Shown: positions 1 through 49,857 of the stretch, one piece after another
How positions within the stretch are numbered: position 1 is the stretch's first letter
Layout of the letters: each line of letters starts with the position of its first letter
NCBI RefSeq assembly: GCF_041248615.1
Contig: NZ_CP158426.1
Origin: Escherichia coli
GTDB taxonomy: Bacteria; Pseudomonadota; Gammaproteobacteria; Enterobacterales; Enterobacteriaceae
DNA length: 64,000 nucleotides
Direction: 5' to 3' (one strand)
Program-made: the position numbers and the translations under genes
Notes under the pieces: generated by a model
Database searches by the model: none
Seen by the model: the letters and a program-made list of their open reading frames with translations, nothing else
Told to the model about the DNA's origin: nothing

Positions 1-139
1 GTTTCACGTCTATCAGATATATGCAGTTTGTGAACGTCAGGGCGCAGAGATCCCCGGGCCGTATGCCCGTTTATTTCTGGCGACATTCTTTATGGATTGC
101 CGGGCGCATTGCGCTTACCCGGCTTACAGAACAAAAAGA

Positions 140-697
140 TTAAAACGTGGTGGGCGTATGGGCGCTGATAATTCGGCAAATACCTGCCGACGTATTACTG
201 AAACTGTGCGGGATGCCGGTATTAATGGCATAACTTTGCCCCGCGACGAGGTGGTAATCCTGACCATTAATCGTCAGAACAATTTCACCTTCCAGTACAG
301 TGCCTATTTCCTCACCCTGATGCTTAATTCTTTCCCCAGTGGTTGTGCCCGGCTGGTACGTTTCAAAGATCATCGCCAGCGTGCGATTCGGGTTACCGTT
401 ATGAACCAGCTTCATTGACACACCCTGACTGCCCATCTCAATTAAGTCGTCCTGATTAATGACGACCTGCGGCTCATCAGGTTTTTCCGGCTCGGAAAAG
501 AATTCCGAGAGTGACAGACCATACACCTTCAGCAGCTTTTGCAGCGTACTGATGGCAGGGCTGACTTTATCTTGTTCTATCGTACTGATAGCACTGTGAG
601 TCAGCCCGGAGAGTTCGGCGGCACGACGTTGTGAAAGCCCCTGCTGCTGGCGGATTTCCGACAAGCGTTTTCCTGGCGCCAGTCCCTCATCACTCAT
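140..697 (-). CDS. puuR: HTH-type transcriptional repressor PuuR (putrescine utilisation)
   Basis: 185-aa ORF recognised as E. coli PuuR (N-terminal HTH, C-terminal cupin); position downstream of puuD matches the puuDR arrangement. Confidence 0.9.
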   Translation of the reverse strand: MSDEGLAPGKRLSEIRQQQGLSQRRAAELSGLTHSAISTIEQDKVSPAISTLQKLLKVYGLSLSEFFSEPEKPDEPQVVINQDDLIEMGSQGVSMKLVHNGNPNRTLAMIFETYQPGTTTGERIKHQGEEIGTVLEGEIVLTINGQDYHLVAGQSYAINTGIPHSFSNTSAGICRIISAHTPTTF

Positions 698-723
698 ATT
701 TGCATTTCCTTAAACTGTAGTGG

Positions 724-1488
724 TCAGAGTCGCTGTTTTTCAGCGATATGGTGCTGACAAGCGGTGATAAAGCCCTCGAACAATATACGCGAAAGCGCGT
801 ACTCGCTACTGTTCCATTCCGGGTGCCACTGTACGCCCAGCGCAAAAGGATGATTGATGACGCTAACCGCCTCAACTAAGCCATCCGGCGAGCGAGCTTC
901 AACACGCAACCGTGGGCTAACGACCTTCGCCCCTTGTCCATGCAGAGAGTTTACCCAAAAGTTGCTACATTCAGGTAACAACGCAGACAGTAATCCCCCC
1001 TCTTCAACCAGAACTTCATGCGACGGCGCATATTGCTGCTCCACCGGCAGTTCGGGATCTTCCCGATGTTCCAGCAATTCAGGCTGTTCGCACAGCTTGC
1101 GATGCAACGAACCACCGGTTGCCACCACCAGTTCCTGTAAACCCCGGCAGATGGCGAAAATGGGGATGCGCCTTTCGAGTGCGGCATTAATTAACGCCAT
1201 GCTCAGAAGATCACGCCCGGGATCGGCGTCAGGCTCATCGCCGTTTTCACCATATAGGTGCGGCTGCACATTGCTGGGACTACCAGGAAGATAAATACCA
1301 TCGAGTTTCGGCAAAAGTTGTTCAAGTAATGACGGTTCCGCCAGCGCATGTGGCAGCGCAATTGGCAAGCCGCCTGCGTGGATGATGGCATTCAGGTACT
1401 TTTCTTGCAGAGTCTGGGTCGCATGACCCTTAAGCCTGTTCCTGCACATTACGACACCGATAACCGGATTGTTCATTATATTTTCCAT
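724..1488 (-). CDS. puuD: gamma-glutamyl-gamma-aminobutyrate hydrolase PuuD
   Basis: ORF matches PuuD (class I glutamine amidotransferase-like); start trimmed to the MENIMNNPVIG methionine giving 254 aa. Confidence 0.88.
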   Translation of the reverse strand: MENIMNNPVIGVVMCRNRLKGHATQTLQEKYLNAIIHAGGLPIALPHALAEPSLLEQLLPKLDGIYLPGSPSNVQPHLYGENGDEPDADPGRDLLSMALINAALERRIPIFAICRGLQELVVATGGSLHRKLCEQPELLEHREDPELPVEQQYAPSHEVLVEEGGLLSALLPECSNFWVNSLHGQGAKVVSPRLRVEARSPDGLVEAVSVINHPFALGVQWHPEWNSSEYALSRILFEGFITACQHHIAEKQRL

Positions 1489-1699
1489 GCTCAATCTCAC
1501 AAAGTGGACTAAATTATCGCCATTACTGCGCTTTAAATGACCTTTATGTTCAATATTTTTTCAATCTAGCAGTGGGTTTTCATTTTTGCAAACTCAATTT
1601 AACATTTGACAAACATTTAGTTTGCATACAGATTCGAATGGTGGTCATTATATTTTACGCTTTGATAACGAGCGGAAAACAAACCAAAGGCGAAGAATC
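1489..1699. promoter_or_regulatory. divergent puuD / puuA promoter-operator region
   Basis: 211-bp AT-rich intergenic region between divergently oriented puuD and puuA; the known site of PuuR control in E. coli; exact sites not mapped here. Confidence 0.5.
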
Positions 1700-3118
1700 A
1701 TGGAAACCAATATCGTTGAAGTAGAGAACTTTGTTCAGCAGTCAGAAGAGAGGCGGGGTAGCGCCTTTACGCAGGAAGTGAAACGCTACCTGGAGCGCTA
1801 CCCGAATACACAATATGTTGATGTTTTACTTACCGATTTGAATGGTTGCTTCCGTGGAAAACGTATTCCTGTTTCAAGCCTTAAGAAGCTCGAGAAAGGG
1901 TGTTATTTCCCGGCCTCGGTATTTGCAATGGATATTCTGGGTAATGTAGTAGAAGAAGCGGGCCTGGGTCAGGAAATGGGCGAGCCGGATCGTACCTGTG
2001 TTCCTGTTCTCGGTTCCTTAACCCCTTCTGCCGCCGATCCAGAGTTTATAGGTCAGATGCTCCTGACCATGGTCGATGAAGATGGCGCTCCCTTTGACGT
2101 TGAGCCGCGGAACGTTCTTAACCGCCTGTGGCAGCAGCTGCGCCAGCGCGGATTGTTCCCGGTCGTAGCGGTAGAGCTGGAGTTCTATTTACTGGATCGC
2201 CAGCGCGACGCTGAAGGGTATCTGCAACCGCCCTGCGCGCCCGGCACCGATGACCGCAATACACAAAGCCAGGTTTACTCCGTTGATAACCTCAACCACT
2301 TCGCCGACGTGCTCAATGATATTGATGAGCTGGCGCAGTTACAGCTGATTCCGGCAGATGGCGCGGTCGCCGAGGCCTCGCCAGGTCAGTTTGAAATCAA
2401 TCTTTACCATACCGATAACGTGCTGGAAGCTTGCGATGATGCGCTGGCACTAAAACGCCTGGTGCGTCTGATGGCAGAAAAGCATAAGATGCACGCCACT
2501 TTTATGGCGAAGCCGTATGAAGAGCACGCGGGCAGCGGGATGCATATCCATATCAGTATGCAAAATAACCGTGGCGAGAACGTGCTTTCTGACGCGGAAG
2601 GCGAAGATTCGCCGCTGCTGAAAAAGATGCTCGCCGGGATGATTGACCTGATGCCGTCATCAATGGCGTTGCTGGCACCAAACGTGAACTCGTATCGCCG
2701 CTTCCAGCCGGGAATGTATGTGCCGACGCAGGCGTCGTGGGGCCATAACAACCGCACCGTCGCCCTGCGTATTCCCTGCGGCGATCGCCATAATCACCGC
2801 GTGGAATATCGCGTGGCGGGTGCCGATGCCAACCCGTATCTGGTGATGGCGGCGATTTTTGCCGGTATTTTGCATGGCCTTGATAACGAACTGCCATTAC
2901 AGGAAGAAGTCGAAGGCAACGGGCTGGAACAGGAAGGCTTACCCTTCCCGATTCGCCAGAGCGATGCCCTGGGTGAGTTTATCGAGAATGATCACCTGCG
3001 CCGCTATTTAGGCGAACGCTTCTGCCATGTCTATCACGCCTGTAAAAATGATGAGCTGTTGCAGTTTGAGCGCCTCATCACAGAAACAGAAATTGAGTGG
3101 ATGTTGAAAAACGCGTAA
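1700..3118 (+). CDS. puuA: gamma-glutamylputrescine synthetase PuuA (glutamine synthetase family)
   Basis: ORF matches PuuA; start trimmed to METNIVEVENF giving 472 aa; the ORF-track start at 1622 is a non-ATG upstream extension. Confidence 0.9.
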   Translation: METNIVEVENFVQQSEERRGSAFTQEVKRYLERYPNTQYVDVLLTDLNGCFRGKRIPVSSLKKLEKGCYFPASVFAMDILGNVVEEAGLGQEMGEPDRTCVPVLGSLTPSAADPEFIGQMLLTMVDEDGAPFDVEPRNVLNRLWQQLRQRGLFPVVAVELEFYLLDRQRDAEGYLQPPCAPGTDDRNTQSQVYSVDNLNHFADVLNDIDELAQLQLIPADGAVAEASPGQFEINLYHTDNVLEACDDALALKRLVRLMAEKHKMHATFMAKPYEEHAGSGMHIHISMQNNRGENVLSDAEGEDSPLLKKMLAGMIDLMPSSMALLAPNVNSYRRFQPGMYVPTQASWGHNNRTVALRIPCGDRHNHRVEYRVAGADANPYLVMAAIFAGILHGLDNELPLQEEVEGNGLEQEGLPFPIRQSDALGEFIENDHLRRYLGERFCHVYHACKNDELLQFERLITETEIEWMLKNA

Positions 3119-3420
3119 TACCCCTTGCGGGGTTGTTTCATCGGCCTGAGCGGAGCCAGGCCTGACATTTGCTGGTAATCCAGACATTTCCCGGATGTCG
3201 CGTTATGGAGCGCAGGCGGCAACGGGCTTCCGTTAACGATTAAGACTGTGACGAGGAAATGAGATGATGCCGATGATTAAATCCCCGCATGGCGAGGGAG
3301 GCTGCGTATGCGCCCCTCCTGCGACTGACTGGACTCCGCCCCCTTTGCTTCCCTTGCTAAACAGGTTTGATTTCAGGTCGACACGACCGCAAACCTTATT
3401 ACGCAGGGGAGGCAGCAACT

Positions 3421-4806
3421 ATGGCTATTAATTCACCACTGACTATTGCTGCGCAATCTGGCAAAACCCGTCTGCGAAAATCACTGAAATTGTGGCAGGT
3501 GGTGATGATGGGTCTGGCCTATCTCACGCCGATGACCGTATTTGATACTTTTGGTATTGTCTCCGGCATTAGCGACGGTCACGTTCCGGCGTCCTATTTG
3601 CTGGCGCTGGCGAGCGTGCTGTTTACCGCTATCAGCTACGGCAAACTGGTTCGCCAGTTTCCGGAGGCCGGTTCGGCCTATACCTACGCGCAAAAGTCGA
3701 TTAACCCGCACGTCGGATTTATGGTCGGCTGGTCATCACTGCTGGATTATCTCTTTTTGCCAATGATCAACGTTTTGTTGGCGAAAATCTATCTCTCCGC
3801 CCTCTTCCCGGAAGTGCCGCCGTGGGTGTGGGTGGTAACCTTCGTCGCCATTTTAACCGCCGCGAATCTGAAGAGCGTCAACCTGGTCGCTAACTTCAAT
3901 ACCCTGTTTGTACTGGTGCAAATCTCCATCATGGTGGTGTTTATCTTCCTGGTGGTTCAGGGACTGCATAAAGGAGAAGGCGTTGGCACCGTCTGGTCAC
4001 TTCAGCCGTTTATCAGCGAGAACGCGCACCTGATCCCGATTATTACCGGGGCGACGATTGTCTGTTTCTCCTTCCTCGGTTTCGATGCGGTGACCACGCT
4101 TTCGGAAGAGACGCCGGACGCCGCACGCGTGATCCCGAAAGCCATCTTCCTGACGGCGGTATACGGCGGCGTTATCTTTATCGCTGCGTCGTTCTTTATG
4201 CAGCTGTTCTTTCCCGATATCAGCCGCTTTAAAGACCCGGACGCCGCACTGCCTGAAATTGCGCTATACGTCGGCGGCAAGCTCTTCCAGTCGATTTTCC
4301 TCTGTACCACGTTTGTGAACACGTTAGCGTCTGGCCTGGCGTCGCACGCCAGCGTGTCGCGTCTGCTGTATGTGATGGGGCGTGACAATGTGTTTCCGGA
4401 GCGCGTGTTTGGCTATGTGCACCCGAAATGGCGGACTCCGGCACTGAACGTCATTATGGTCGGGATTGTCGCGTTGTCAGCGCTGTTCTTTGATTTAGTC
4501 ACCGCGACAGCATTGATTAACTTCGGTGCTCTGGTGGCATTTACCTTCGTAAATCTGTCGGTGTTTAATCATTTCTGGCGGCGTAAAGGAATGAATAAAA
4601 GCTGGAAGGATCACTTCCACTATTTGCTGATGCCGCTGGTTGGCGCGCTGACGGTGGGTGTGCTGTGGGTTAATCTCGAGTCAACGTCACTGACACTCGG
4701 TCTGGTATGGGCTTCGTTAGGCGGCGCATATTTGTGGTATCTGATCCGCCGCTATCGCAAAGTGCCGTTGTATGATGGTGACAGAGCGCCGGTGAGCGAA
4801 ACGTAA
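3421..4806 (+). CDS. puuP: putrescine importer PuuP (APC family permease)
   Basis: ORF matches PuuP from [12 protein letters not shown] (461 aa); multiple hydrophobic helices; ATG at 3421. Confidence 0.9.
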
Positions 4807-4939
4807 TAGTCGGATGCGCGGCGCATTATCCTGCCTGAGGGTAATGCACCGCGCCATTAACTATAAAAAGATGTATGACCCGGATCACGAGTGCTATCAT
4901 CCGCCCTTATGCTTAGCGCATTAACCCCAGGGGGAAATA

Positions 4940-5185
4940 ATGAACCACGATATCCCGCTAAAATATTTTGATATTGCCGATGAGTACGCGACCGAATGCG
5001 CAGAGCCTGTCGCAGACGCTGAACGCACACCGCTGGCCCTCTACTTCCAGTTACTGCTCACCCGTTTGATGAACAATGAAGAGATCAGCGAAGAAGCCCA
5101 ACATGAAATGGCTGCTGAAGCGGGGATTAATCCCGTACGCATTGATGAGATCGCAGAGTTTTTGAATCAATGGGGTAATGAGTAA
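4940..5185 (+). CDS. ymjA: small protein YmjA (DUF2543)
   Basis: 81-aa ORF matching E. coli YmjA; conserved position between puuP and sapA. Confidence 0.8.
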
Positions 5186-7141: not shown

Positions 7142-8103
7142 TTATCTTCACCTTACGCCGCATTTTGTTATTGATTGTCACCTTGTTCCTGCTGACCTTC
7201 GTTGGCTTCAGCTTGAGCTATTTCACCCCACATGCGCCGTTACAAGGCGCGTCACTGTGGAATGCCTGGGTGTTCTGGTTTAATGGCCTGATCCACTGGG
7301 ATTTTGGTGTTTCCAGCATTAACGGTCAACCGATTGCCGAACAGTTAAAAGAGGTCTTCCCGGCGACGATGGAACTGTGCATCCTCGCCTTCGGTTTTGC
7401 GCTGATTGTTGGCATCCCCGTGGGGATGATTGCCGGGATTACGCGCCATAAGTGGCAGGATAACTTGATCAACGCCATCGCCTTACTGGGCTTTTCCATC
7501 CCGGTGTTCTGGCTGGCGCTTCTGTTGACGCTGTTTTGTTCACTCACGCTAGGTTGGTTGCCCGTTTCAGGGCGTTTCGATCTGCTCTACGAAGTGAAAC
7601 CGATTACCGGTTTTGCGTTGATTGATGCCTGGCTTTCGGACTCACCATGGCGGGATGAAATGGTCATGAGCGCAATCCGCCATATGATATTGCCCGTGAT
7701 CACCCTGTCGGTTGCGCCAACAACTGAAGTGATCCGACTGATGCGTATTAGCACTATCGAAGTGTATGACCAGAACTATGTTAAAGCAGCGGCGACCCGC
7801 GGTTTGTCGCGCTTTACTATTTTGCGTCGCCACGTTCTGCATAACGCGTTACCTCCGGTTATTCCTCGCCTGGGCTTACAGTTTTCTACCATGCTGACGC
7901 TGGCGATGATCACCGAAATGGTTTTTAGCTGGCCGGGTTTAGGCCGCTGGTTAATTAACGCTATCCGCCAGCAGGATTACGCAGCCATTTCCGCCGGAGT
8001 GATGGTGTGTGGCTCACTGGTCATTATTGTTAACGTGATTTCTGATATTTTGGGTGCCATGGCTAACCCTCTGAAACATAAGGAATGGTATGCCTTACGA
8101 TAG
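7138..8103 (+). CDS. sapB: peptide ABC transporter permease SapB
   Basis: 321-aa polytopic membrane ORF; 4-nt ATGA overlap with the sapA stop. Confidence 0.9.
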
Positions 8104-10828: not shown

Positions 10829-11992
10829 TTACTTTTGATTGTCGATTCTGGTGAGAGCAACCAGCAATGCCAGCGTATAACACACCGTAATTGCCAGACT
10901 CATTTTTAACAGTGTTTCTCCGCCAATTCCCGACAATGGCGCGGCTATACCGCCGAAGACAAACATGCTCATCCCCATCAACGCAGACGCCGTTCCAGAT
11001 TCCTGCGTCCCTACTGCACTCATAGCCTCTGCCCCGCCAACAGTGCCGATGCCGCTACAAAATGCGATGGTGAAAAATAATGCCACCAGTGCCGGAATGG
11101 GCAATTGTATCCATGCGCATAAGACCGTGAGCAATGCACACAAAATTGCCGCTATCAGGCCACCTCGCAACAATGTCATCGCGTTAATCCGTCGCGCCAG
11201 GCGCGAGAAGATCCATGAAGCAATGATAAGTCCGATGCCGTTAAGGCCAAACACCAGGCTAAATTGCATTGGACTAAAGCCAAATTCCTTCTGCAACACG
11301 AACGACGAAGAGCCGATATATGCAAACAAACCGGCCAGCATAAAACTTTGAATCAGGCAAAAGCGCATAAAACGGCGGTTCTGCACCACGCTTCGTCCGG
11401 TTAATAGCAATGATGAGCCCCTTTTATTTTCTGGCAAGGTCTCATTAATAAATAACAGGCAGCCCAGCAACAGTACGGTGCTAATTTCAGCCATTACCCA
11501 GAATAAAGTGCGCCAGTCAAAAGTGCTGACAATGTACCCGCCCAGCACTGGCGACAACACCGGTGCCAGGCCATTCACCGTCATTAACAGCGCAAAAAAC
11601 TGGGTCAACGTTACTCCCTGATATTTGTCACGAGCAATAGAACGAGAGAGCACCGAACCACCCGCCCCCGCGATCCCTTGAATAAAACGCCAGACCACCA
11701 GCCAGTAAATATTGTTCGTTGTCGCGCACAAAATGGAAGAAACAATAAACAATAGCAACGACAAGATTAACGGACGTTTACGCCCTATTTTGTCGCTCAG
11801 AGGGCCAAATAACAGTTGTCCGACGCCAAGACCGATCAGCGATGCGGTCAGGGTTAATTGCGTTATGGTCGTGGTTGCCGCCAGTTGCTCAGACATCTCC
11901 GGCAAAGCCGGCAAATAAAGATCGGTACACATCGGGCCGATACCGGCTAAAAGACCAAGAATCAATGCCCATGAAAGAGAGACTCTAGCCAT
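10829..11992 (-). CDS. MFS drug efflux transporter (Bcr/CflA-like, DHA1 family)
   Basis: 387-aa ORF with about 12 predicted TM helices and MFS-type motifs (GPLSDKIGRKRP); last gene of the accessory efflux cluster. Confidence 0.75.
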   Translation of the reverse strand: MARVSLSWALILGLLAGIGPMCTDLYLPALPEMSEQLAATTTITQLTLTASLIGLGVGQLLFGPLSDKIGRKRPLILSLLLFIVSSILCATTNNIYWLVVWRFIQGIAGAGGSVLSRSIARDKYQGVTLTQFFALLMTVNGLAPVLSPVLGGYIVSTFDWRTLFWVMAEISTVLLLGCLLFINETLPENKRGSSLLLTGRSVVQNRRFMRFCLIQSFMLAGLFAYIGSSSFVLQKEFGFSPMQFSLVFGLNGIGLIIASWIFSRLARRINAMTLLRGGLIAAILCALLTVLCAWIQLPIPALVALFFTIAFCSGIGTVGGAEAMSAVGTQESGTASALMGMSMFVFGGIAAPLSGIGGETLLKMSLAITVCYTLALLVALTRIDNQK

Positions 11993-12000
11993 ATTATTCC

Positions 12001-13374
12001 TTACTTGAGTGATGACATGCCGCCGCCCAGCGACTGCCAGAGCGTGATTCGGTTTGTAAAATCAGTCAGTTGCAGTGCCAGCAGCTCCTGCTGTGCGCTC
12101 CACAAGCTGCGCTGCGCCGTCAACACGGTCAGGTAATCACCAACACCCGCCTGATAGCGACGCAAGCCAACATCGACCGTTTGTTGCTCAGCTTTAACAT
12201 ACTGGCGCTGTGCATCCAGTTGCTCTTCAAGCGTGGTCCGCCGCGCCAGTGCGTTAGCGACATCTTTAAATGCGCTCTGAACGGTTTTTTCATAGGTGGC
12301 AATGAGTCCACGCTTTTGTGCTTCTGCGTAACGAAGCTGCGCCAAATTACTTCCGCCAGTGAACAGCGGTAATGTGACCGATGGCGTAAATGACCAGATC
12401 TGCATTCCGTAGCTGAACAACGACGACAATGCGTCACTGCCAACACCAGCGCTGGCAGTCAGCGAAATCGTCGGAAAAAAGTTAGCCCGCGCCGCGCCAA
12501 TATCGGCATTGGCGCTCTTCAAATTATGTTCCGCTTCCTGGATATCCGGGCGACGCAGCAGAACGTCAGATGACACTCCCGCAGGAACCAGACTTATCAT
12601 CTGTTCCGGCAGGCTTTCCAGTGTTCCCGGTAGCAAATTTTCCTCAAGCGTTGTACCTGCCAGTAAGTTCAGCGCATTTTTATCCTGCATCACTTGTGTC
12701 TGATAGCTGGCAACGCTGGCGCGCGCTTGCTGATAAACACTCATCGCCTCACTGACATCTGTCGCTGCCGCCGTGCCAACCTGTTGCTGGCGCTGGATAA
12801 TTTTCAATGAGTTTTCTGCACTGGCCATCGTTTCTTTTGCCAGGGCCAGGTTGCTGTTATCAGCCGCCAGTGTCAGCCAGGCGGTGCTGATTTCAGCAAT
12901 CAGCGTTAAACGAGTGTTCTGGGCTGTAAATTCACTGGCAAGCCAGGTTTCCCGCGCCGCCCGAGATAAACTCTGATTACGACCAAACAGATCTAACGTA
13001 TAACTGGACACCGTGCCGTCAGCCTCGGCAGTTGTTCCCGTACCATTCGCCAGCGAACGACTGCGAGTCGAACTTAAGGCCGCATTCACCGTCGGGAATA
13101 ACGACGCATTAGTTTGCCCATAGAGCGCCCGTGCTGAGTCAATATCAGCAATCGCTTTTTGCACATCGCGGTTACTGTTCAGTGCAATGGTTACTACCTG
13201 CTGCAATCGGGGATCGTGGATCACCTGCTGCCAGTCATGGCTGATTGCCTTCCCCTGGCCCTGTGCTCCCGGCAAGGTCGCCGGGATTGGGGATTCAGGC
13301 GTACTGTAGTGGGGATCGAGCGAGACACATCCCGCACTCAACAGCACCAGAAAAATAAGAGAACGACGCAACAT
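12001..13374 (-). CDS. efflux outer-membrane factor lipoprotein (NodT/OprM family)
   Basis: 457-aa ORF with lipoprotein signal (LLSAGC); two-repeat architecture typical of TolC-like OMF proteins. Confidence 0.8.
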   Translation of the reverse strand: MLRRSLIFLVLLSAGCVSLDPHYSTPESPIPATLPGAQGQGKAISHDWQQVIHDPRLQQVVTIALNSNRDVQKAIADIDSARALYGQTNASLFPTVNAALSSTRSRSLANGTGTTAEADGTVSSYTLDLFGRNQSLSRAARETWLASEFTAQNTRLTLIAEISTAWLTLAADNSNLALAKETMASAENSLKIIQRQQQVGTAAATDVSEAMSVYQQARASVASYQTQVMQDKNALNLLAGTTLEENLLPGTLESLPEQMISLVPAGVSSDVLLRRPDIQEAEHNLKSANADIGAARANFFPTISLTASAGVGSDALSSLFSYGMQIWSFTPSVTLPLFTGGSNLAQLRYAEAQKRGLIATYEKTVQSAFKDVANALARRTTLEEQLDAQRQYVKAEQQTVDVGLRRYQAGVGDYLTVLTAQRSLWSAQQELLALQLTDFTNRITLWQSLGGGMSSLK

Positions 13375-13377
13375 AAC

Positions 13378-16300
13378 TTACTCCTGACGGCGCGGTTTAC
13401 CGGCAAACAAACGTTTCACCAGTACAAAAAACAGAGGAACAAAGAAAATAGCCAGCAACGTAGCGGTCAGCGTACCGCCAATAATGCCCGTACCAATGGC
13501 GATGCGGCTGTTCGCCCCTGCGCCGGTTGCTATCGCCAGCGGCATTACCCCCGCAATAAACGCCAGCGAGGTCATGATGATTGGGCGTAAACGAGTCTGC
13601 GCCGCGCGTAATGCCGCACGACTCAAGGAATAGCCCTCTGCAACCGCCGCTTCAGCAAATTCCACAATCAGAATGGCGTTTTTCGACGACAAGCCGATAG
13701 TGGTTAATAGCGCCACCTGGAAGTAAACATCGTTGTTTAAATCACGCATCCAGGCCGCCAGCGCCGCGCCAAGAAGCCCCAGAGGGATCACCAGAATGAC
13801 CGAGAACGGGACTGACCAGCTTTCGTACAGTGCTGCAAGGCAGAGGAAAACCACCAGAATAGAAACTGCATACAGACTTAATGCCTGACCGCTGGCCAGT
13901 TTCTCCTGCAATGACAAACCACTCCAGGCCCAGGTTGTTCCCGCAGGAAGACTGTTTGCCAGTTCCTCCATTTTTGTCATTGCATCGCCGGAACTAAAGC
14001 CAGTCGCATTTTCCCCCTGAATTTCATAGGCTGCAGAACCGTTGTAGCGCACCAGTCTTTCCGGTCCATACAGCCAGCGGGTGGTCGCAAAAGCAGAGAA
14101 TGGTGTCATGGCGTTATCGCTACCGCGCACAAACCATTTACCTAAGTCTGACGGCGCGGAACGAAATTCACTGTCGCCCTGAATGTAGACTTTTTTCACA
14201 CGACCACGGTCAATAAAGTCATTCACATAAGTACCGCCCCACGCACTGGACAGGGTGTCGGTGACATCATTCAAACTCAACCCTAATGACACCGCTTTAT
14301 TACTATCAATATCTACCTGCAATTGCGGCATTTGTGGCAAATCATTAGCACGCACAGAATGTAACTCCGGACTTTGATTCGCTTTTTCTATCAACTGATT
14401 ACGCATTTGCAGTAGTGTTTCGCGATCGGTTCCACCGTTAGCTAACAATTCAAACGTAAAACCATTGCTTTGCCCCAGCCCATCAACGGCTGGCGGCGTC
14501 ATCGCAAATACCGTGGCATCACGAATTGTGCCCAGCTCTTTGGTTGCCCGTAGGGCGATAGCCTGGGCGGTGTTTTCTGCCCCTTTACGTTGAGACCAGT
14601 TTTTCAACGAAACAAACGCCATCCCGGTGTTCTGTCCGCTGCCGCTAAAACTGAAACCATCAACGGTAAAAATAACATCGGTATTTGCTTTCTCATTAAT
14701 CAGGAACCAGTCAACAATCTGGCGATTCACTTCTGCTGTACGGGCAGCGGTCGCCCCGGCCGGCAGCGTGTACTGCACCATGATTTCGCCCTGGTCTTCA
14801 GTGGGTAAGAAACTGCCCGGCAGTTTCCACATCATCAGGGCCATTCCACCACCCAGTACGACATAAAGCCCCATCGTTCGAGCAGCACGGCGCAGGACAT
14901 AAATTACGCCTCGCTGATATTTATCTTCAGTACGGCGGTAAAAGCGGTTAAATGCGCCGAAAAAGCCTTTTTTATGTGGCGGAACATGCTGGAGGACGGA
15001 ACCGCACAGGGCGGGAGTCAAGGTCAATGCCACTACCACGGAAAGCAGCATTGCGGAGATAATGGTTATCGAAAACTGACGATAAATTACCCCCGTAGAT
15101 CCCCCAAAGAAGGCCATAGGCAGGAATACGGCTGATAACACCAGCGCAATGGCAACCAGTGCGCCAGAAATCTCGCCCATTGATTTTTCCGTGGCTTCAC
15201 GCGCGGGCAACCCTTCGTCACGCATAATGCGTTCGACGTTCTCCACCACCACAATGGCATCGTCCACCAGCAAGCCGATCGCCAGGACCATTGCAAACAA
15301 CGTCAGGGTATTAATCGAATAGCCAAACAACGCAAGAACGCCGAATGTGCCCAGCAAAACGACGGGGACAGCTAACGCCGGAATCAGTGTGGCACGCAGG
15401 TTTTGCAGGAATAAATACATCACGCAAACCACCAATACGATGGCTTCAAACAGCGTCTGAATTACGTCCTCTACAGAGATTTTAATAAATTCAGTGCTGT
15501 CTTTCGGGTATGCGATGTCGTATCCCTGCGGCATGTTCCGCTGGAATTCGGCAATCTTATCCTTGACCAGCGTCGCCGTATTCAGCGCATTCGCACCGGG
15601 CGAAAGCATTACAGCAACCCCGGCAGACGGGTGACCGTTAAGTTTGCCGATAGCGGTATAATCTTCACTGCCCATCTCAACGCGAGCCACATCTTTTATA
15701 CGAACAACTGCGCCGTCTGACTGGCTTTTCACGATAATATTTTTGAACTGATCCACCGTCTGCAAGCGAGACTGCGCACGTACCGTTGCGGTCAGTTGCT
15801 GAGTATTCGGTGAAGGCAATGCCCCTATTTTCCCGGCAGTAACCTGCACGTTTTGCGCTTCAATAGCACTTTGCACGTCTGAAGGCATTAGCGAGTAAGA
15901 CGCCAGTTTGGCCGGGTCAAGCCAGATGCGCATAGCGTATTCCGCGCCAAAGACTTGCAGACTCCCCACACCTTCAACACGCGCCAGCGGGTCCTGAACG
16001 TTACTAACCAACCAGTCGGCGATATCCGAACTGGAGGCTTTATCAGTGGTGTCATACACGGCAGCAATCAGCAAAAAGTTGCTTTGTGATTTCTCCACCG
16101 TAACACCCGTTTGCTGCACTTCGCTGGGTAGGCGCGACTCCGCCTGCTGAATTTTATTCTGCACCTGAACCTGTGCAGTATCTGGATCGGTACCTTGTTC
16201 AAAGGTCACATTAATACTGACCGAACCATCAGAGCTACTGGTTGAGCTGAAATAGAGTAAATTATCAAGCCCAGTGAGTTGTTGCTCGATAACCTGAGTC

Positions 16301-16485
16301 ACGCTGTTCTCCAGCGTTTCGGCAGAAGCACCAGTATAAGTGGCTGAAATTTTAATGGTCGGCGGTGCAACGTCAGGATATTGCGCGACGGGTAATGTGC
16401 GAATAGCCAGAATCCCCGCCAACATAATCAAAATGGCGATAACCCAGGCAAAGACCGGGCGGCGAACAAAAAAGCGCGAAAACAT
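13378..16485 (-). CDS. RND multidrug efflux pump, inner-membrane permease (AcrB/MexB-like HAE1)
   Basis: 1035-aa ORF; N-terminus MFSRFFVRRPVFAWVIAILIMLAG is the hallmark AcrB-family start; 12 TM helices and two large periplasmic loops. Confidence 0.9.
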   Translation of the reverse strand: MFSRFFVRRPVFAWVIAILIMLAGILAIRTLPVAQYPDVAPPTIKISATYTGASAETLENSVTQVIEQQLTGLDNLLYFSSTSSSDGSVSINVTFEQGTDPDTAQVQVQNKIQQAESRLPSEVQQTGVTVEKSQSNFLLIAAVYDTTDKASSSDIADWLVSNVQDPLARVEGVGSLQVFGAEYAMRIWLDPAKLASYSLMPSDVQSAIEAQNVQVTAGKIGALPSPNTQQLTATVRAQSRLQTVDQFKNIIVKSQSDGAVVRIKDVARVEMGSEDYTAIGKLNGHPSAGVAVMLSPGANALNTATLVKDKIAEFQRNMPQGYDIAYPKDSTEFIKISVEDVIQTLFEAIVLVVCVMYLFLQNLRATLIPALAVPVVLLGTFGVLALFGYSINTLTLFAMVLAIGLLVDDAIVVVENVERIMRDEGLPAREATEKSMGEISGALVAIALVLSAVFLPMAFFGGSTGVIYRQFSITIISAMLLSVVVALTLTPALCGSVLQHVPPHKKGFFGAFNRFYRRTEDKYQRGVIYVLRRAARTMGLYVVLGGGMALMMWKLPGSFLPTEDQGEIMVQYTLPAGATAARTAEVNRQIVDWFLINEKANTDVIFTVDGFSFSGSGQNTGMAFVSLKNWSQRKGAENTAQAIALRATKELGTIRDATVFAMTPPAVDGLGQSNGFTFELLANGGTDRETLLQMRNQLIEKANQSPELHSVRANDLPQMPQLQVDIDSNKAVSLGLSLNDVTDTLSSAWGGTYVNDFIDRGRVKKVYIQGDSEFRSAPSDLGKWFVRGSDNAMTPFSAFATTRWLYGPERLVRYNGSAAYEIQGENATGFSSGDAMTKMEELANSLPAGTTWAWSGLSLQEKLASGQALSLYAVSILVVFLCLAALYESWSVPFSVILVIPLGLLGAALAAWMRDLNNDVYFQVALLTTIGLSSKNAILIVEFAEAAVAEGYSLSRAALRAAQTRLRPIIMTSLAFIAGVMPLAIATGAGANSRIAIGTGIIGGTLTATLLAIFFVPLFFVLVKRLFAGKPRRQE

Positions 16486-17606
16486 CAGGCGTTGCCTCCA
16501 TTAGCCTGAACTTCAACAGCCTTGACGGTCTGCCCTGAAGTGACTTTGGCAGAACCTTCAACAATCAGTCGGTCGCCGTTGTGCAGGCCGTTCAGCACCA
16601 GCCATTTATCACCATACGTTTCTCCCGTTTCGAGCGTTCGCTGCTCTACTTTATTGTCTTTATTCACCACCAGCGCAGTTGCATTGCCTTTAGCATCGCG
16701 CGTGACGCCCTGTTGCGGCGCGAGAATAGCGTCTTCCATCACGCCTTCATCGACACGAGCGCGAACAAACATTCCCGGTAATAACTGCTGTTGTGGATTG
16801 GGGAAAATCGCCCGTAATGTCACCGAACCGGTAGACTCATCTACAGCGACTTCGGTGAGTTCCAGACGCCCTTTTTCGCTGTAGGTTGTGCCATCTTCCA
16901 GAATAAGTGAGACGCTCATGGTGTCACTGTTGGTCGCCAGTGACTGTTTACGCAGACGTAATAAATCGACACTGGAGCGAGTGAGGTCGACATACATTGT
17001 ATCCAGACCACGAATAGTCGTTAACGCTGTATCTTGCGACGCGGTCACCAGTGCGCCAGGGGTTACCGACGAAATGCCAATGCGCCCTGAAATCGGTGCG
17101 GTTACCGTGGTCCAGTCAAGATTAATGCGCGCAGTTTCCAGCGCGGCTTTTTTCGCCTCTACACTGGCTTTATCTTGTGCACAGGTAGACTGAGCATCAT
17201 CAGCATCCTGTTGTGAAACACCGTTCTCTTTCACCAGTCGGGCATAACGCTGCGCTTTCTGGCAATCGGCTTTTACCAGTGCCTGTGCTTGTTGTAATGC
17301 TGCCCGAGCTTCATTCCATGCAGCCTGATAACTGGCCGCATCAATCTGGTAGAGAGGCTGTCCAGCCTTGACCAGATCACCTTCCTTAAATAAGCGTTTC
17401 TGGATAATTCCCCCAACCTGCGGACGTACTTCAGCACTGAGCGCAGCACTGGTGCGTCCGGTTAATTCACTGACTACCGAAACAGGTTGAGATTTGAGCG
17501 TAACAACGCCGACTTCTGTTTCTGACGGGGATGAATTGTTACTTTGCGTATTATCACAACCCGATAAGAGCAGCATTGCCACTACAGATGTTGCTATATA
17601 CTTCAT
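16485..17606 (-). CDS. RND efflux membrane fusion protein (AcrA/MexA-like periplasmic adaptor)
   Basis: ORF with lipoprotein signal MKYIATSVVAMLLLSGC; start chosen at the ATG preceded by GGAG (ORF track extends to 17639); 1-nt overlap with the RND gene. Confidence 0.8.
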   Translation of the reverse strand: MKYIATSVVAMLLLSGCDNTQSNNSSPSETEVGVVTLKSQPVSVVSELTGRTSAALSAEVRPQVGGIIQKRLFKEGDLVKAGQPLYQIDAASYQAAWNEARAALQQAQALVKADCQKAQRYARLVKENGVSQQDADDAQSTCAQDKASVEAKKAALETARINLDWTTVTAPISGRIGISSVTPGALVTASQDTALTTIRGLDTMYVDLTRSSVDLLRLRKQSLATNSDTMSVSLILEDGTTYSEKGRLELTEVAVDESTGSVTLRAIFPNPQQQLLPGMFVRARVDEGVMEDAILAPQQGVTRDAKGNATALVVNKDNKVEQRTLETGETYGDKWLVLNGLHNGDRLIVEGSAKVTSGQTVKAVEVQANGGNA

Positions 17607-17657
17607 TATTTTCTCCAGGGTGAGAAATACCCTCCTCATTGAAATTAATGAGGATAT

Positions 17658-17736
17658 GTCAGGGATATTCAGTTATAACGAACCCGCATCGCGAAATGAA
17701 TTTCGCAATGAAATAAGGGGGATTAATATCCCCCGC
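17658..17736. promoter_or_regulatory. palindrome-rich region between the tetR-like gene and the efflux operon (candidate operator plus terminator hairpin)
   Basis: inverted repeats cctcatt-N6-aatgagg and gcgaaat-ga-atttcgc, followed by the hairpin gggggattaatatccccc. Confidence 0.4.
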
Positions 17737-17754
17737 TATTGGTTAATTCTGTTC

Positions 17755-18321
17755 TTATTTATTTATCAACATACTAACAATATCCTGATATATTTCCTGC
17801 AGATGTTGTGGATCGCTTTTTTGCGGTGTTAAACGACGATAAACCGTACCTTCCATCATGGTAGCAAACACTTCAACGCAGCAACGAATGTGCTCGTCGC
17901 TAAGATGGGGATGCATTCTTTTCATATGTGCACAACCGTTAGCGAACATTCTGGCGTCAGCTTCTTCAAGCATTGCCATAACCCGCGGGTTGCGTGTGGC
18001 TTCTGCAGCCACTTCCAGCATCAGCGCGTCGTCGTCCTCATTTAAGGATTTACGCAAGGCAAGGACTTCCGGGAAGTGATCGGTACGCGCGTCAATGTCC
18101 ATTTGGGCAATACGAAAGTCGATGATACGGCGAACCATCTCTTCAATAATGGCGTCTTTGTTGGCGAAGTAACGATATATCTGACCCACGCTAAGCTGAG
18201 CTTCGCTGGCAATTTGCGACATACTGGCGGCATGAAACCCGCAGCGACGAAAACACCGACGGGCGGCGTTAATGATTTCATCCTGACGCTGTTTGTGGCG
18301 TATCTCCAGCTTGCTGGTCAT
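17755..18321 (-). CDS. TetR/AcrR-family transcriptional regulator
   Basis: TetR-type HTH (AARRCFRRCGFHAASMSQIASEAQLSVGQIYRYFANKD) near the N-terminus when started at MTSKLEIRH (AGGAGA RBS); ORF track extends to 18420. Confidence 0.75.
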   Translation of the reverse strand: MTSKLEIRHKQRQDEIINAARRCFRRCGFHAASMSQIASEAQLSVGQIYRYFANKDAIIEEMVRRIIDFRIAQMDIDARTDHFPEVLALRKSLNEDDDALMLEVAAEATRNPRVMAMLEEADARMFANGCAHMKRMHPHLSDEHIRCCVEVFATMMEGTVYRRLTPQKSDPQHLQEIYQDIVSMLINK

Positions 18322-34001: not shown

Positions 34002-34164
34002 AGCTCCTCCTTAATGACAGGGTTGCGACGCCCTGATTCTCTTCAGGGTGAATATTAAAGATAACACAAACATCGCGTAACGATTTGATAACAACCCAAA
34101 TTGATAAAAGAGGAGAAACCTTGTGGCAAAGCAAATGAAAACCCCGCCGCAGCGGGGTCAGGTA

Positions 34165-34260
34165 TCAGTGAGTAATGATCCAGAGGAATTCGGCCCAGAA
34201 GAGCATCGACAGAGAAAACGCGCCCATCCAGGACCAATATTTCATATTTGTGTTGATCAT
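34165..34260 (-). CDS. 31-aa hydrophobic small ORF upstream of acnA (possibly the small protein annotated as ymiC in K-12)
   Basis: hand translation of the minus strand gives MINTNMKYWSWMGAFSLSMLFWAEFLWIITH with an AAGGTG-like RBS; below the ORF-track length cutoff. Confidence 0.4.
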   Translation of the reverse strand: MINTNMKYWSWMGAFSLSMLFWAEFLWIITH

Positions 34261-34373
34261 AGGCTACACCTTTAACGGTTATTACTTTGTGTTGAGATAA
34301 CTCAACCTGTTATTGCTGCGGTGTATTAAAAGCCCTTTAATTCATTAAAAATGGGTAATAAGAATGATGATAA

Positions 34374-40227: not shown

Positions 40228-40905
40228 AAATGCGCCTGTAAGGCTCTGTTACCAGCCGCGCCCTAACAGGCGCATACGATCTGACATTTGCATTCAACTT
40301 CGTTACTTACGGCCCGTAAACGGGCTGCCCGGATAGGGAATCGATAACTGCTCCCCCATTTTATCCTCTTCAAGCTGGTGCTTTATGTAGTCCTGTATCT
40401 TCGCCGTGTTCTTACCCACCGTATCGACATAGTACCCTCGGCACCAGAACTCCCTGTTTCTGTATTTGAATTTCAAATCCCCAAACTGCTCGTAAAGCAT
40501 CAGACTGCTTTTCCCTTTCAGATATCCCATAAAGCCGGATACGCTCATTTTGGGTGGGATTTCCACAAGCATATGGATATGATCTGCGCAGCACTCTGCT
40601 TCCAGAATCCGTACGCTTTTCCACTCACACAGCTTTCTCAAAATACTGCCTATCGCCCTACGCTTCTCTCCGTAAAACGCCAGTCTTCGGTATTTCGGCG
40701 CAAAAACTATGTGATATTTACAGTTCCAGCGGGTGTGCGCTAAGCTCTTTTCGTCCCCCATTGGGACCCCCTTTTGATTTCTTGTTTGACACTTGCAGTT
40801 GCCAGACCGCAAGGTGTTTTAACAAATCAAAAGGGGTTTTAATAACTGGCTCAAAGCTGAAAGCTTTCCGGAACCCCCAGCCTAGCTGGGGGTTTTCTGT
40901 GCACA
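40228..40905 (-). mobile_element. IS200-type insertion sequence (IS200/IS605 family); boundaries approximate
   Basis: contains a Y1 transposase gene matching IS200 TnpA, plus the characteristic 5' structures: an end-proximal hairpin (40873..40893) and a long stem-loop (about 40767..40836) that occludes the tnpA RBS; no TSD, as expected for this family. Confidence 0.6.
40303..40761 (-). CDS. tnpA: IS200 transposase TnpA (HUH/Y1 family)
   Basis: 152-aa ORF from MGDEKSLAHTRWNCKYHIVFAPKYRR with the HxH motif (ADHIHML) and catalytic Tyr region; track ORF has a 17-aa extension. Confidence 0.9.
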   Translation of the reverse strand: MGDEKSLAHTRWNCKYHIVFAPKYRRLAFYGEKRRAIGSILRKLCEWKSVRILEAECCADHIHMLVEIPPKMSVSGFMGYLKGKSSLMLYEQFGDLKFKYRNREFWCRGYYVDTVGKNTAKIQDYIKHQLEEDKMGEQLSIPYPGSPFTGRK

Positions 40906-49740: not shown

Positions 49741-49785
49741 ATGAAAGCAATTTTCGTACTGAAAGGTTGGTGGCGCACTTCCTGA
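49741..49785 (+). CDS. trpL: trp operon leader peptide
   Basis: atgaaagcaattttcgtactgaaaggttggtggcgcacttcctga encodes [14 protein letters not shown] with tandem Trp codons. Confidence 0.95.
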
Positions 49786-49827
49786 AACGGGCAGTGTATT
49801 CACCATGCGTAAAGCAATCAGATACCC

Positions 49828-49857
49828 AGCCCGCCTAATGAGCGGGCTTTTTTTTGA
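49828..49857 (+). terminator. trp attenuator (3:4 terminator hairpin)
   Basis: agcccgcc-taatga-gcgggct followed by a run of 8 T. Confidence 0.95.

Follow-up and report, generated by a model that had tools for sequence, protein, structure and literature searches.

A shared control region between the divergent puuD and puuA genes of Escherichia coli, with four probable PuuR operators, two promoters and an ArcA site

The puu cluster of E. coli occupies positions 1–4800 of the window (the whole stretch of DNA that was analysed, 64 kb in length), in the order puuR, puuD, puuA, ymjE and puuP. Three of these genes surround or are governed from the region described here:

140–697, minus strand: puuR, encoding the XRE-HTH and cupin repressor (RefSeq annotation)
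724–1488, minus strand: puuD, encoding gamma-glutamyl-GABA hydrolase, with a Peptidase_C26 domain at residues 8–224 (annotation)
1700–3118, plus strand: puuA, encoding glutamate-putrescine ligase, with a Gln-synt_C domain (annotation); first gene of the rightward unit

Leftward transcription is headed by puuD, in a unit comprising puuD, puuR, puuC, puuB and puuE (Cho 2014). The PuuR repressor combines an XRE-type HTH (Pfam HTH_3, residues 13–66, E=6e-15) with a C-terminal cupin (Cupin_2, residues 111–178, E=6e-19), and a search for a solved PuuR structure found none, returning only a distant Xre HTH. Between the minus-strand puuD start codon, which ends at 1488, and the puuA ATG at 1700 lies a spacer of 211 bp (1489–1699), a length shared with the K-12 annotation, and the sequence from 1440 to 1730 is 100% identical to that of MG1655. 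K-12 coordinates (NC_000913.3) are obtained by subtracting the window position from 1362608. GC content is 34% in the spacer, 50% in the window and 53% in the flanking genes, bearing out an earlier sequence-only reading of this DNA, which had described an AT-rich spacer of 211 bp between two divergent genes.

Among complete E. coli genomes with the 246-bp control region, 4212 of 4371 are at least 99% identical over it; a 3.1-kb query that includes the genes reaches this level in only 751 of 4373 E. coli genomes. Allowing for the shorter query, the comparison is consistent with strong constraint on the control region. The puuR-puuD-puuA segment is without a match in 1053 of 5426 complete E. coli genomes (~19%). 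In strain EM18-18-42 (NZ_CP063473.1) the control-region query aligns at positions 183–246 only, which suggests that the spacer of this strain is disrupted.

Elsewhere in the window, a cluster between sapF and fabI (~10830–18320) encodes an MFS transporter, an outer-membrane factor, an RND permease, an adaptor and a TetR regulator, the gene names being those given in NZ_LT599825.1, a record that is 100% identical. This MFS/RND cluster is presumably missing from K-12. Comparison with Rfam gave no match in window 1–5000, which includes both leaders; the following were matched further along, each above the gathering score:

34131–34333, minus strand: sRNA STnc180
40771–40894, minus strand: Hfq-binding sRNA STnc490
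49762–49855, plus strand: tryptophan operon leader

The sequence-only reading had also pointed to partly symmetric AT-rich motifs near 1640–1660, which were thought to resemble a PuuR box. The string that it quoted, atggtggtcattatatttt, was found at 1638–1656, and a repeat search returned a family of 19-nt direct repeats with copies at 1470, 1547 and 1642. The 15-mer AAAATATAATGAACA, reportedly the published PuuR consensus, occurs on the minus strand at 1470–1484 with no mismatches, at 1642–1656 with one and at 1547–1561 with two; elsewhere in the 64 kb it never matches with fewer than three. The 15-mer of the first copy has two further matches in the spacer at ≤2 mismatches, against 0.005 expected, and two or more such matches arose in 0 of 5000 dinucleotide-preserving shuffles of the spacer.

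Eighty PuuR-orthologue loci were fetched, of which 59 have kept the divergent puuA/puuD-puuR arrangement, with spacers of 205–239 bp (mostly 210–213 bp). Alignment of these 59 loci revealed five conserved blocks with diverged sequence between them. Four of these are 20-bp boxes related to one another. They are kept in 59/59 puuA/puuD/puuR loci, all of which encode PuuR and which range over the Enterobacterales from Escherichia to genera such as Serratia, Erwinia and Hafnia. In the window the boxes are as follows, with scores from a position weight matrix (PWM) built from the non-Escherichia orthologues only:

1469–1488: PuuR box 1, plus strand TTGTTCATTATATTTTCCAT, minus strand ATGGAAAATATAATGAACAA; 23.5 bits, the best PWM match in the 64-kb window
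1504–1523: PuuR box 2, GTGGACTAAATTATCGCCAT; 17.6 bits, rank 4 in the window
1546–1565: PuuR box 3, ATGTTCAATATTTTTTCAAT; 21.9 bits
1641–1660: PuuR box 4, GTGGTCATTATATTTTACGC, minus strand ...AAAATATAATGACCAC; 18.5 bits

The four boxes outscore every other position in the window, a ranking that is not independent of the boxes because the matrix was trained on orthologues of the same sites. The array as a whole is far above chance: four sites of at least 17 bits were observed, and shuffles of 1460–1699 produced at most one such site (2000 trials). In each E. coli box a single good half-site is retained, along with an AT core. In the 59-locus alignment box 3 is conserved, as is GTGGaCATTATATTTaAC within box 4. 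Box 2, which was found through conservation and not through the 15-mer, is the weakest, scoring 14.8 bits by the symmetrised matrix, level with a chance-level match in sapB. Its block is nevertheless conserved as TGGACTAAATTATyGCCA in the 59 loci, and in E. coli both outer arms, TGGnC/GnCCA, are intact around a degenerate centre.

The sapB match, CTGGTCATTATTGTTAACGT, lies at 8017–8036 inside the gene, 54–73 bp before the sapC start, and scores 17.1 bits. Annotation of sapB as a putrescine-export permease makes a box there suggestive by function. As an extra PuuR site it was rejected as not significant, the chance expectation being 0.17–0.37 matches per 64 kb.

The motif quoted from the letters alone is therefore box 4, the last of the four conserved boxes found together with puuR in 59 loci, and its resemblance to a PuuR box is upheld. 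Where a candidate PuuR operator had been proposed in the spacer, the operator reading is supported and the number is revised, as there are four operators, not one, and the first of them lies outside the interval.

Box 1, outside 1489–1699, spans the puuD ATG and codons 2–7, or +69 to +88 relative to the puuD start site. The seven residues that it encodes precede the Peptidase_C26 domain of PuuD, and this N-terminal peptide varies among the 59 orthologues (MENIMNN, MGNIFDK, MVDIFYR and others). At codon 4, ATA is invariant (59/59 orthologues), while Ile at codon 10 is freely ATC or ATT; at codon 3 only AAT and GAT occur, with AAC/GAC in 0/59, and codon 5 is ATG or TTT, with TTC in 0/59. This codon usage, maintained despite a varying peptide, indicates that the synonymous sites are fixed by the operator core. 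The annotated puuD ATG is itself supported as the start by a GAGG-type Shine-Dalgarno block, conserved 6–10 nt upstream of it in the 59-locus alignment:

1495–1499, minus strand: puuD Shine-Dalgarno, TGAGA in E. coli and TGAGG in most genera

Symmetrisation of the box consensus from the non-Escherichia matrix gives the palindrome nTGGnCAATATATTGnCCAn, of which a perfectly palindromic form would be ATGGGCAATATATTGCCCAT. The matrix correlates with its own reverse complement at r=0.88, and at ≤0.34 in shifted registers. The E. coli boxes look like degenerate copies of this palindrome, so that the partial symmetry first remarked on near 1640–1660 is indeed present, as one good half-site in each E. 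coli box and as a palindrome across the family. A near-perfect palindrome, ATGGGCAATATATTTTCCAT, lies upstream of an S. rubidaea puuR that stands by itself (L067), and another, ATGGAAAATATATTGCCCAT, is found in a Serratia paralogue locus without puuD.

A second puuA/puuR pair without puuD is present in Serratia at loci L058, L059, L062, L064–L066, L068 and L070–L075. In one such paralogue spacer that was examined (~395 bp), the box 1 palindrome is retained together with a remnant puuD ATG, the box 3/puuD -10 block and box 4. This suggests that the Serratia paralogue loci arose by duplication, followed by deletion of puuD.

XRE-cupin repressors bind palindromes as dimers, at sites adjoining their own gene (Trouillon et al. 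2021, PMC7901475), and the palindrome found here fits the expectation for a repressor of this class. A 2025 paper describes the PuuR site as not palindromic, with no evidence of a dimer. The family-wide palindrome deduced from the orthologue matrix disagrees with the non-palindromic statement. Dimeric PuuR binding, and any cooperativity between boxes, are putative properties read from this sequence pattern.

The positions of the boxes become informative when set against the promoters of the two divergent units:

1556, minus strand: puuD start site, with a 68-nt leader; NC_000913.2 1359076(+), upstream ...TTTGCAAAAATGAAAACCCACTGCTAGATTGAAAAAA (Kim 2012, Cho 2014)
1563–1571, minus strand: puuD extended -10, TGcTAGATT, the hexamer ending 6 nt upstream of the start site
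1586–1591, minus strand: puuD -35, TTGCAA, with a 17-nt spacer; TTGCAA in 38/59 orthologues and TTGAAT in 13/59
1606–1611, plus strand: predicted puuA -35, TTGACA, a perfect hexamer present in 43/59 orthologues
1629–1634, plus strand: predicted puuA -10, CAGATT, with a 17-nt spacer; YAnnnT in every common orthologue variant

The puuD start site was placed on the window by sequence identity, and 1556 is the only start site within the spacer in the two published maps (Kim 2012, Cho 2014). The puuD -10 block, TGCTAGATT, is kept in 52/59 orthologues. Relative to the puuD start, box 3 covers -9 to +11 and box 2 lies in the leader at +34 to +53. For puuA, no experimental start site is given in Kim 2012, Cho 2014 or Park 2013 ('no TSS'); from the predicted hexamers we infer a start at ~1640–1642, which would place box 4 at about +1 to +20. 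A promoter scan missed this candidate because its -10 matches TATAAT at 3/6 positions. For puuD, an operator is thus seen to overlap the core promoter and the start of the transcribed sequence, as would suit a repressor; for puuA such overlap is no more than predicted.

The spacing between these elements is rigid. Box 3 is separated from the puuD -35 by 40 bp, and the puuD -35 from the predicted puuA -35 by 20 bp, in 59/59 orthologues; box 3 to box 4 measures 95 bp, about 9 helical turns, in 53/59, and box 4 lies 12 nt from the start of the predicted puuA -10 (1629) in 54/59. The puuA leader after box 4 is variable, at 54 to 89 nt. A need for DNA looping as the cause of the 95-bp spacing was considered and rejected, since every sub-interval is accounted for by promoter, operator or ArcA geometry.

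The promoter map also bears on whether the TATAAT-containing boxes might be promoter -10-like elements, or 'promoter-like' sites for RNA polymerase, as opposed to operators. Box 1 does hold a perfect TATAAT, used by the sole sigma-70-like scan match (TTGTGA-16-TATAAT, 1502 to 1475, minus strand), and the cores of boxes 3 and 4 are TATT/TATAT. Published start sites downstream of those elements are absent, however, the spacer having a start at 1556 only. In addition, -10 elements need no outer arms, yet TGGnC/GnCCA is conserved and the motif is palindromic, and the same palindrome precedes the lone puuR of S. rubidaea, making a promoter-like identity for the boxes highly unlikely.

Start sites outside the spacer have been mapped as well. 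Two internal puuD start sites lie on the minus strand, at 1240 (U00096.2 1359392, 465 reads) and 941 (1359691, 966 reads). Synonymous constraint in puuD is strongest at ~1213–1275 (codons 72–92) and 1159–1179 (codons 104–110), coinciding with the published internal start at 1240, which reads into puuR. The internal starts are without a PuuR box, and through them puuR appears to be provided with some transcript that escapes PuuR's own repression. On the other side, a puuP start site at window 3275 (plus strand; NC_000913.2 1357357), with a 146-nt leader (Kim 2012), falls inside the small ORF ymjE (3267–3431); with a separate start site, puuP does not rely on the puuA promoter alone.

The fifth conserved block of the 59-locus alignment, 1583–1627, lies mid-spacer. 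A repeat search found within it the inverted repeat TGCAAACT.../...AGTTTGCA (TGCAAACTCAAT/ATTTAGTTTGCA), and the block contains a known regulatory site:

1585–1627, minus strand: ArcA-P site ATGCAAACTAAATGTTTGTCAAATGTTAAATTGAGTTTGCAAA, four direct repeats with 11-bp phasing

Window 1585–1627 is the exact reverse complement of the four-repeat puuD/puuA entry of Park et al. 2013 (PMC3798270), who reported a ChIP peak at puuD/puuA and an ArcA box, atgtttgtcaaatgttaa, of 14 bits (U00096.2 1359005–1359047). In an arcA mutant puuA was derepressed 15.3-fold and puuDR 10.6-fold (Park et al. 2013, PMC3798270), and in published ChIP data sigma-70 occupancy at the spacer is 8-fold higher aerobically. The 43-bp element belongs to the multi-direct-repeat class of ArcA-P sites described in that work; it is separate from the PuuR boxes and is not the motif of the sequence-only reading.

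As the spacer is bound by ArcA, with repression of both operons, and reviews cite both ArcA and FNR sites for the puuA-puuD region, the quoted motif could be assigned to oxygen-responsive ArcA/FNR control in place of PuuR. The ArcA repeats end 14 bp before box 4, though, and the best spacer matches to the FNR box TTGAT-N4-ATCAA carry 3 mismatches, which is chance level. The FNR ChIP and predicted-site tables S5/S6 of Myers 2013 contain no puu entry, and on these two grounds an FNR site in the spacer was rejected. Assignment of the motif to ArcA/FNR is hardly credible. That the likeness of the boxes reflects chance in low-GC sequence (34% in the spacer) or generic nucleoid-protein binding (H-NS, IHF, Fis), an IHF ChIP-chip region adjoining the spacer at window 1727–2005 inside puuA, is effectively refuted by the shuffles (the 15-mer pattern in 0/5000, and at most one site of at least 17 bits in 2000), by blocks conserved base for base across genera amid diverged intervening sequence, and by the position of the boxes outside the IHF region.

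A sigma-54 promoter within the spacer was rejected, 1489–1699 having no match at ≤2 mismatches. Inside puuD, a sigma-54-type -24/-12 element, aGGtAC-N5-TTGCA, lies at 1394–1409 on the plus strand (puuD codons 27–32), directed toward puuA. As a sequence match it is at chance level (45 window matches against 44 expected). Its GG..GC is kept in 58/59 orthologues, codons 27–33 have a synonymous entropy of 0.33–0.36 against a median of 0.60 (rank 24–27 of 116 windows), and the sigma-54 ChIP-chip region SigN_82 (Cho 2014; window 1181–1567) has its centre 20–35 bp away from the element. An NtrC-sigma-54 promoter within the puu cluster is mentioned in a review, which credits it to Zhao 2010.

Taken as operators, the boxes agree with what has been published on PuuR. 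According to a passage in PMC9951944 that cites Nemoto 2012, the puuA-puuD spacer contains four DNA-binding motifs to which PuuR binds, and a published statement citing the same work has PuuR leave the DNA upon putrescine binding. Protection by purified PuuR (EMSA, DNase I), relieved by putrescine, is likewise reported. In reporters in a heterologous host, PuuR represses PpuuD 36-fold at full length and 6.9-fold when truncated, and PpuuA ~2-fold. The three-to-one distribution of the boxes agrees with this stronger repression of PpuuD than of PpuuA.

It is therefore concluded, with a probability of roughly 0.88, that the spacer is the shared control region of puuA(P) and puuDR(CBE), with four PuuR operators, two promoters and an ArcA site. 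The proposal of a puuD-puuA control region is in this respect confirmed, and the interval holds more than was first ascribed to it, namely two divergent promoters and an ArcA site mid-spacer.

In the mechanism proposed, PuuR would occupy all four boxes in the absence of putrescine. On the puuD side these are box 3 over the -10/+1, box 2 within the leader and box 1 on the start codon; on the puuA side, box 4 coincides with the predicted +1. Occupied boxes would block binding or escape of RNA polymerase in both directions, and puuR would be autoregulated through puuDR. Putrescine, bound in the cupin domain of PuuR, would bring about release of the repressor. ArcA-P, on the four-repeat site over the back-to-back -35 core, represses both promoters anaerobically.

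A more elaborate scheme can be drawn, and is considered possible but on balance doubtful. The 20-bp palindrome would be bound by a PuuR dimer; four phased operators (35, 42 and 95 bp) would act cooperatively, possibly looping out both promoters; operator 1 would in effect encode the seven-residue N-terminal extension of PuuD; and a sigma-54-type promoter at 1394–1409 would read through the array into puuA under nitrogen limitation. The published non-palindromic 15-mer view of PuuR recognition may be incomplete.

Much of this was to be expected, and the first reading had judged the biology as expected rather than novel, a judgement that stands: the region is identical in K-12 and was described earlier. 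The PuuR operators of the puuA-puuD region are reportedly the subject of work by Nemoto in 2012 (J Bacteriol 194:3437). The E. coli K-12 operators lie at the same locus with identical sequence, and are thus the same element in another strain. The site count is four in both, whereas the box coordinates and the 20-bp palindrome given here derive from 59 orthologous loci.

Close parallels are the XRE-cupin repressors PauR, PsdR and ErfA of Pseudomonas (PMC7901475), which share the domain architecture of PuuR. PauR has been described as a PuuR homologue for the gamma-glutamylation pathway (Trouillon et al. 2021, PMC7901475). Like PuuR, these regulators have palindromic operators in the core promoters of neighbouring metabolic genes and beside the regulator gene, and are released by a pathway metabolite. 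The operator sequence differs between PuuR and the Pseudomonas family, in which the three consensus sequences are themselves mutually quite different (PMC7901475). The arrangement differs also, PuuR having its four sites within a single 190-bp array that extends into coding sequence at one site, whereas PauR has 12 scattered genomic targets.

The control region is already known, its PuuR regulation from Nemoto 2012 and its ArcA regulation from Park 2013. It is the textbook switch of E. coli putrescine catabolism, in use in putrescine biosensors, and its discovery value is small. The additions made here are modest, and comprise the coordinate map, the family-wide palindromic consensus, the synonymous constraint in puuD and the rigid promoter/operator spacing. 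The map, which places the four operators, both promoters and the ArcA site, is of practical value, and could help in biosensor design.
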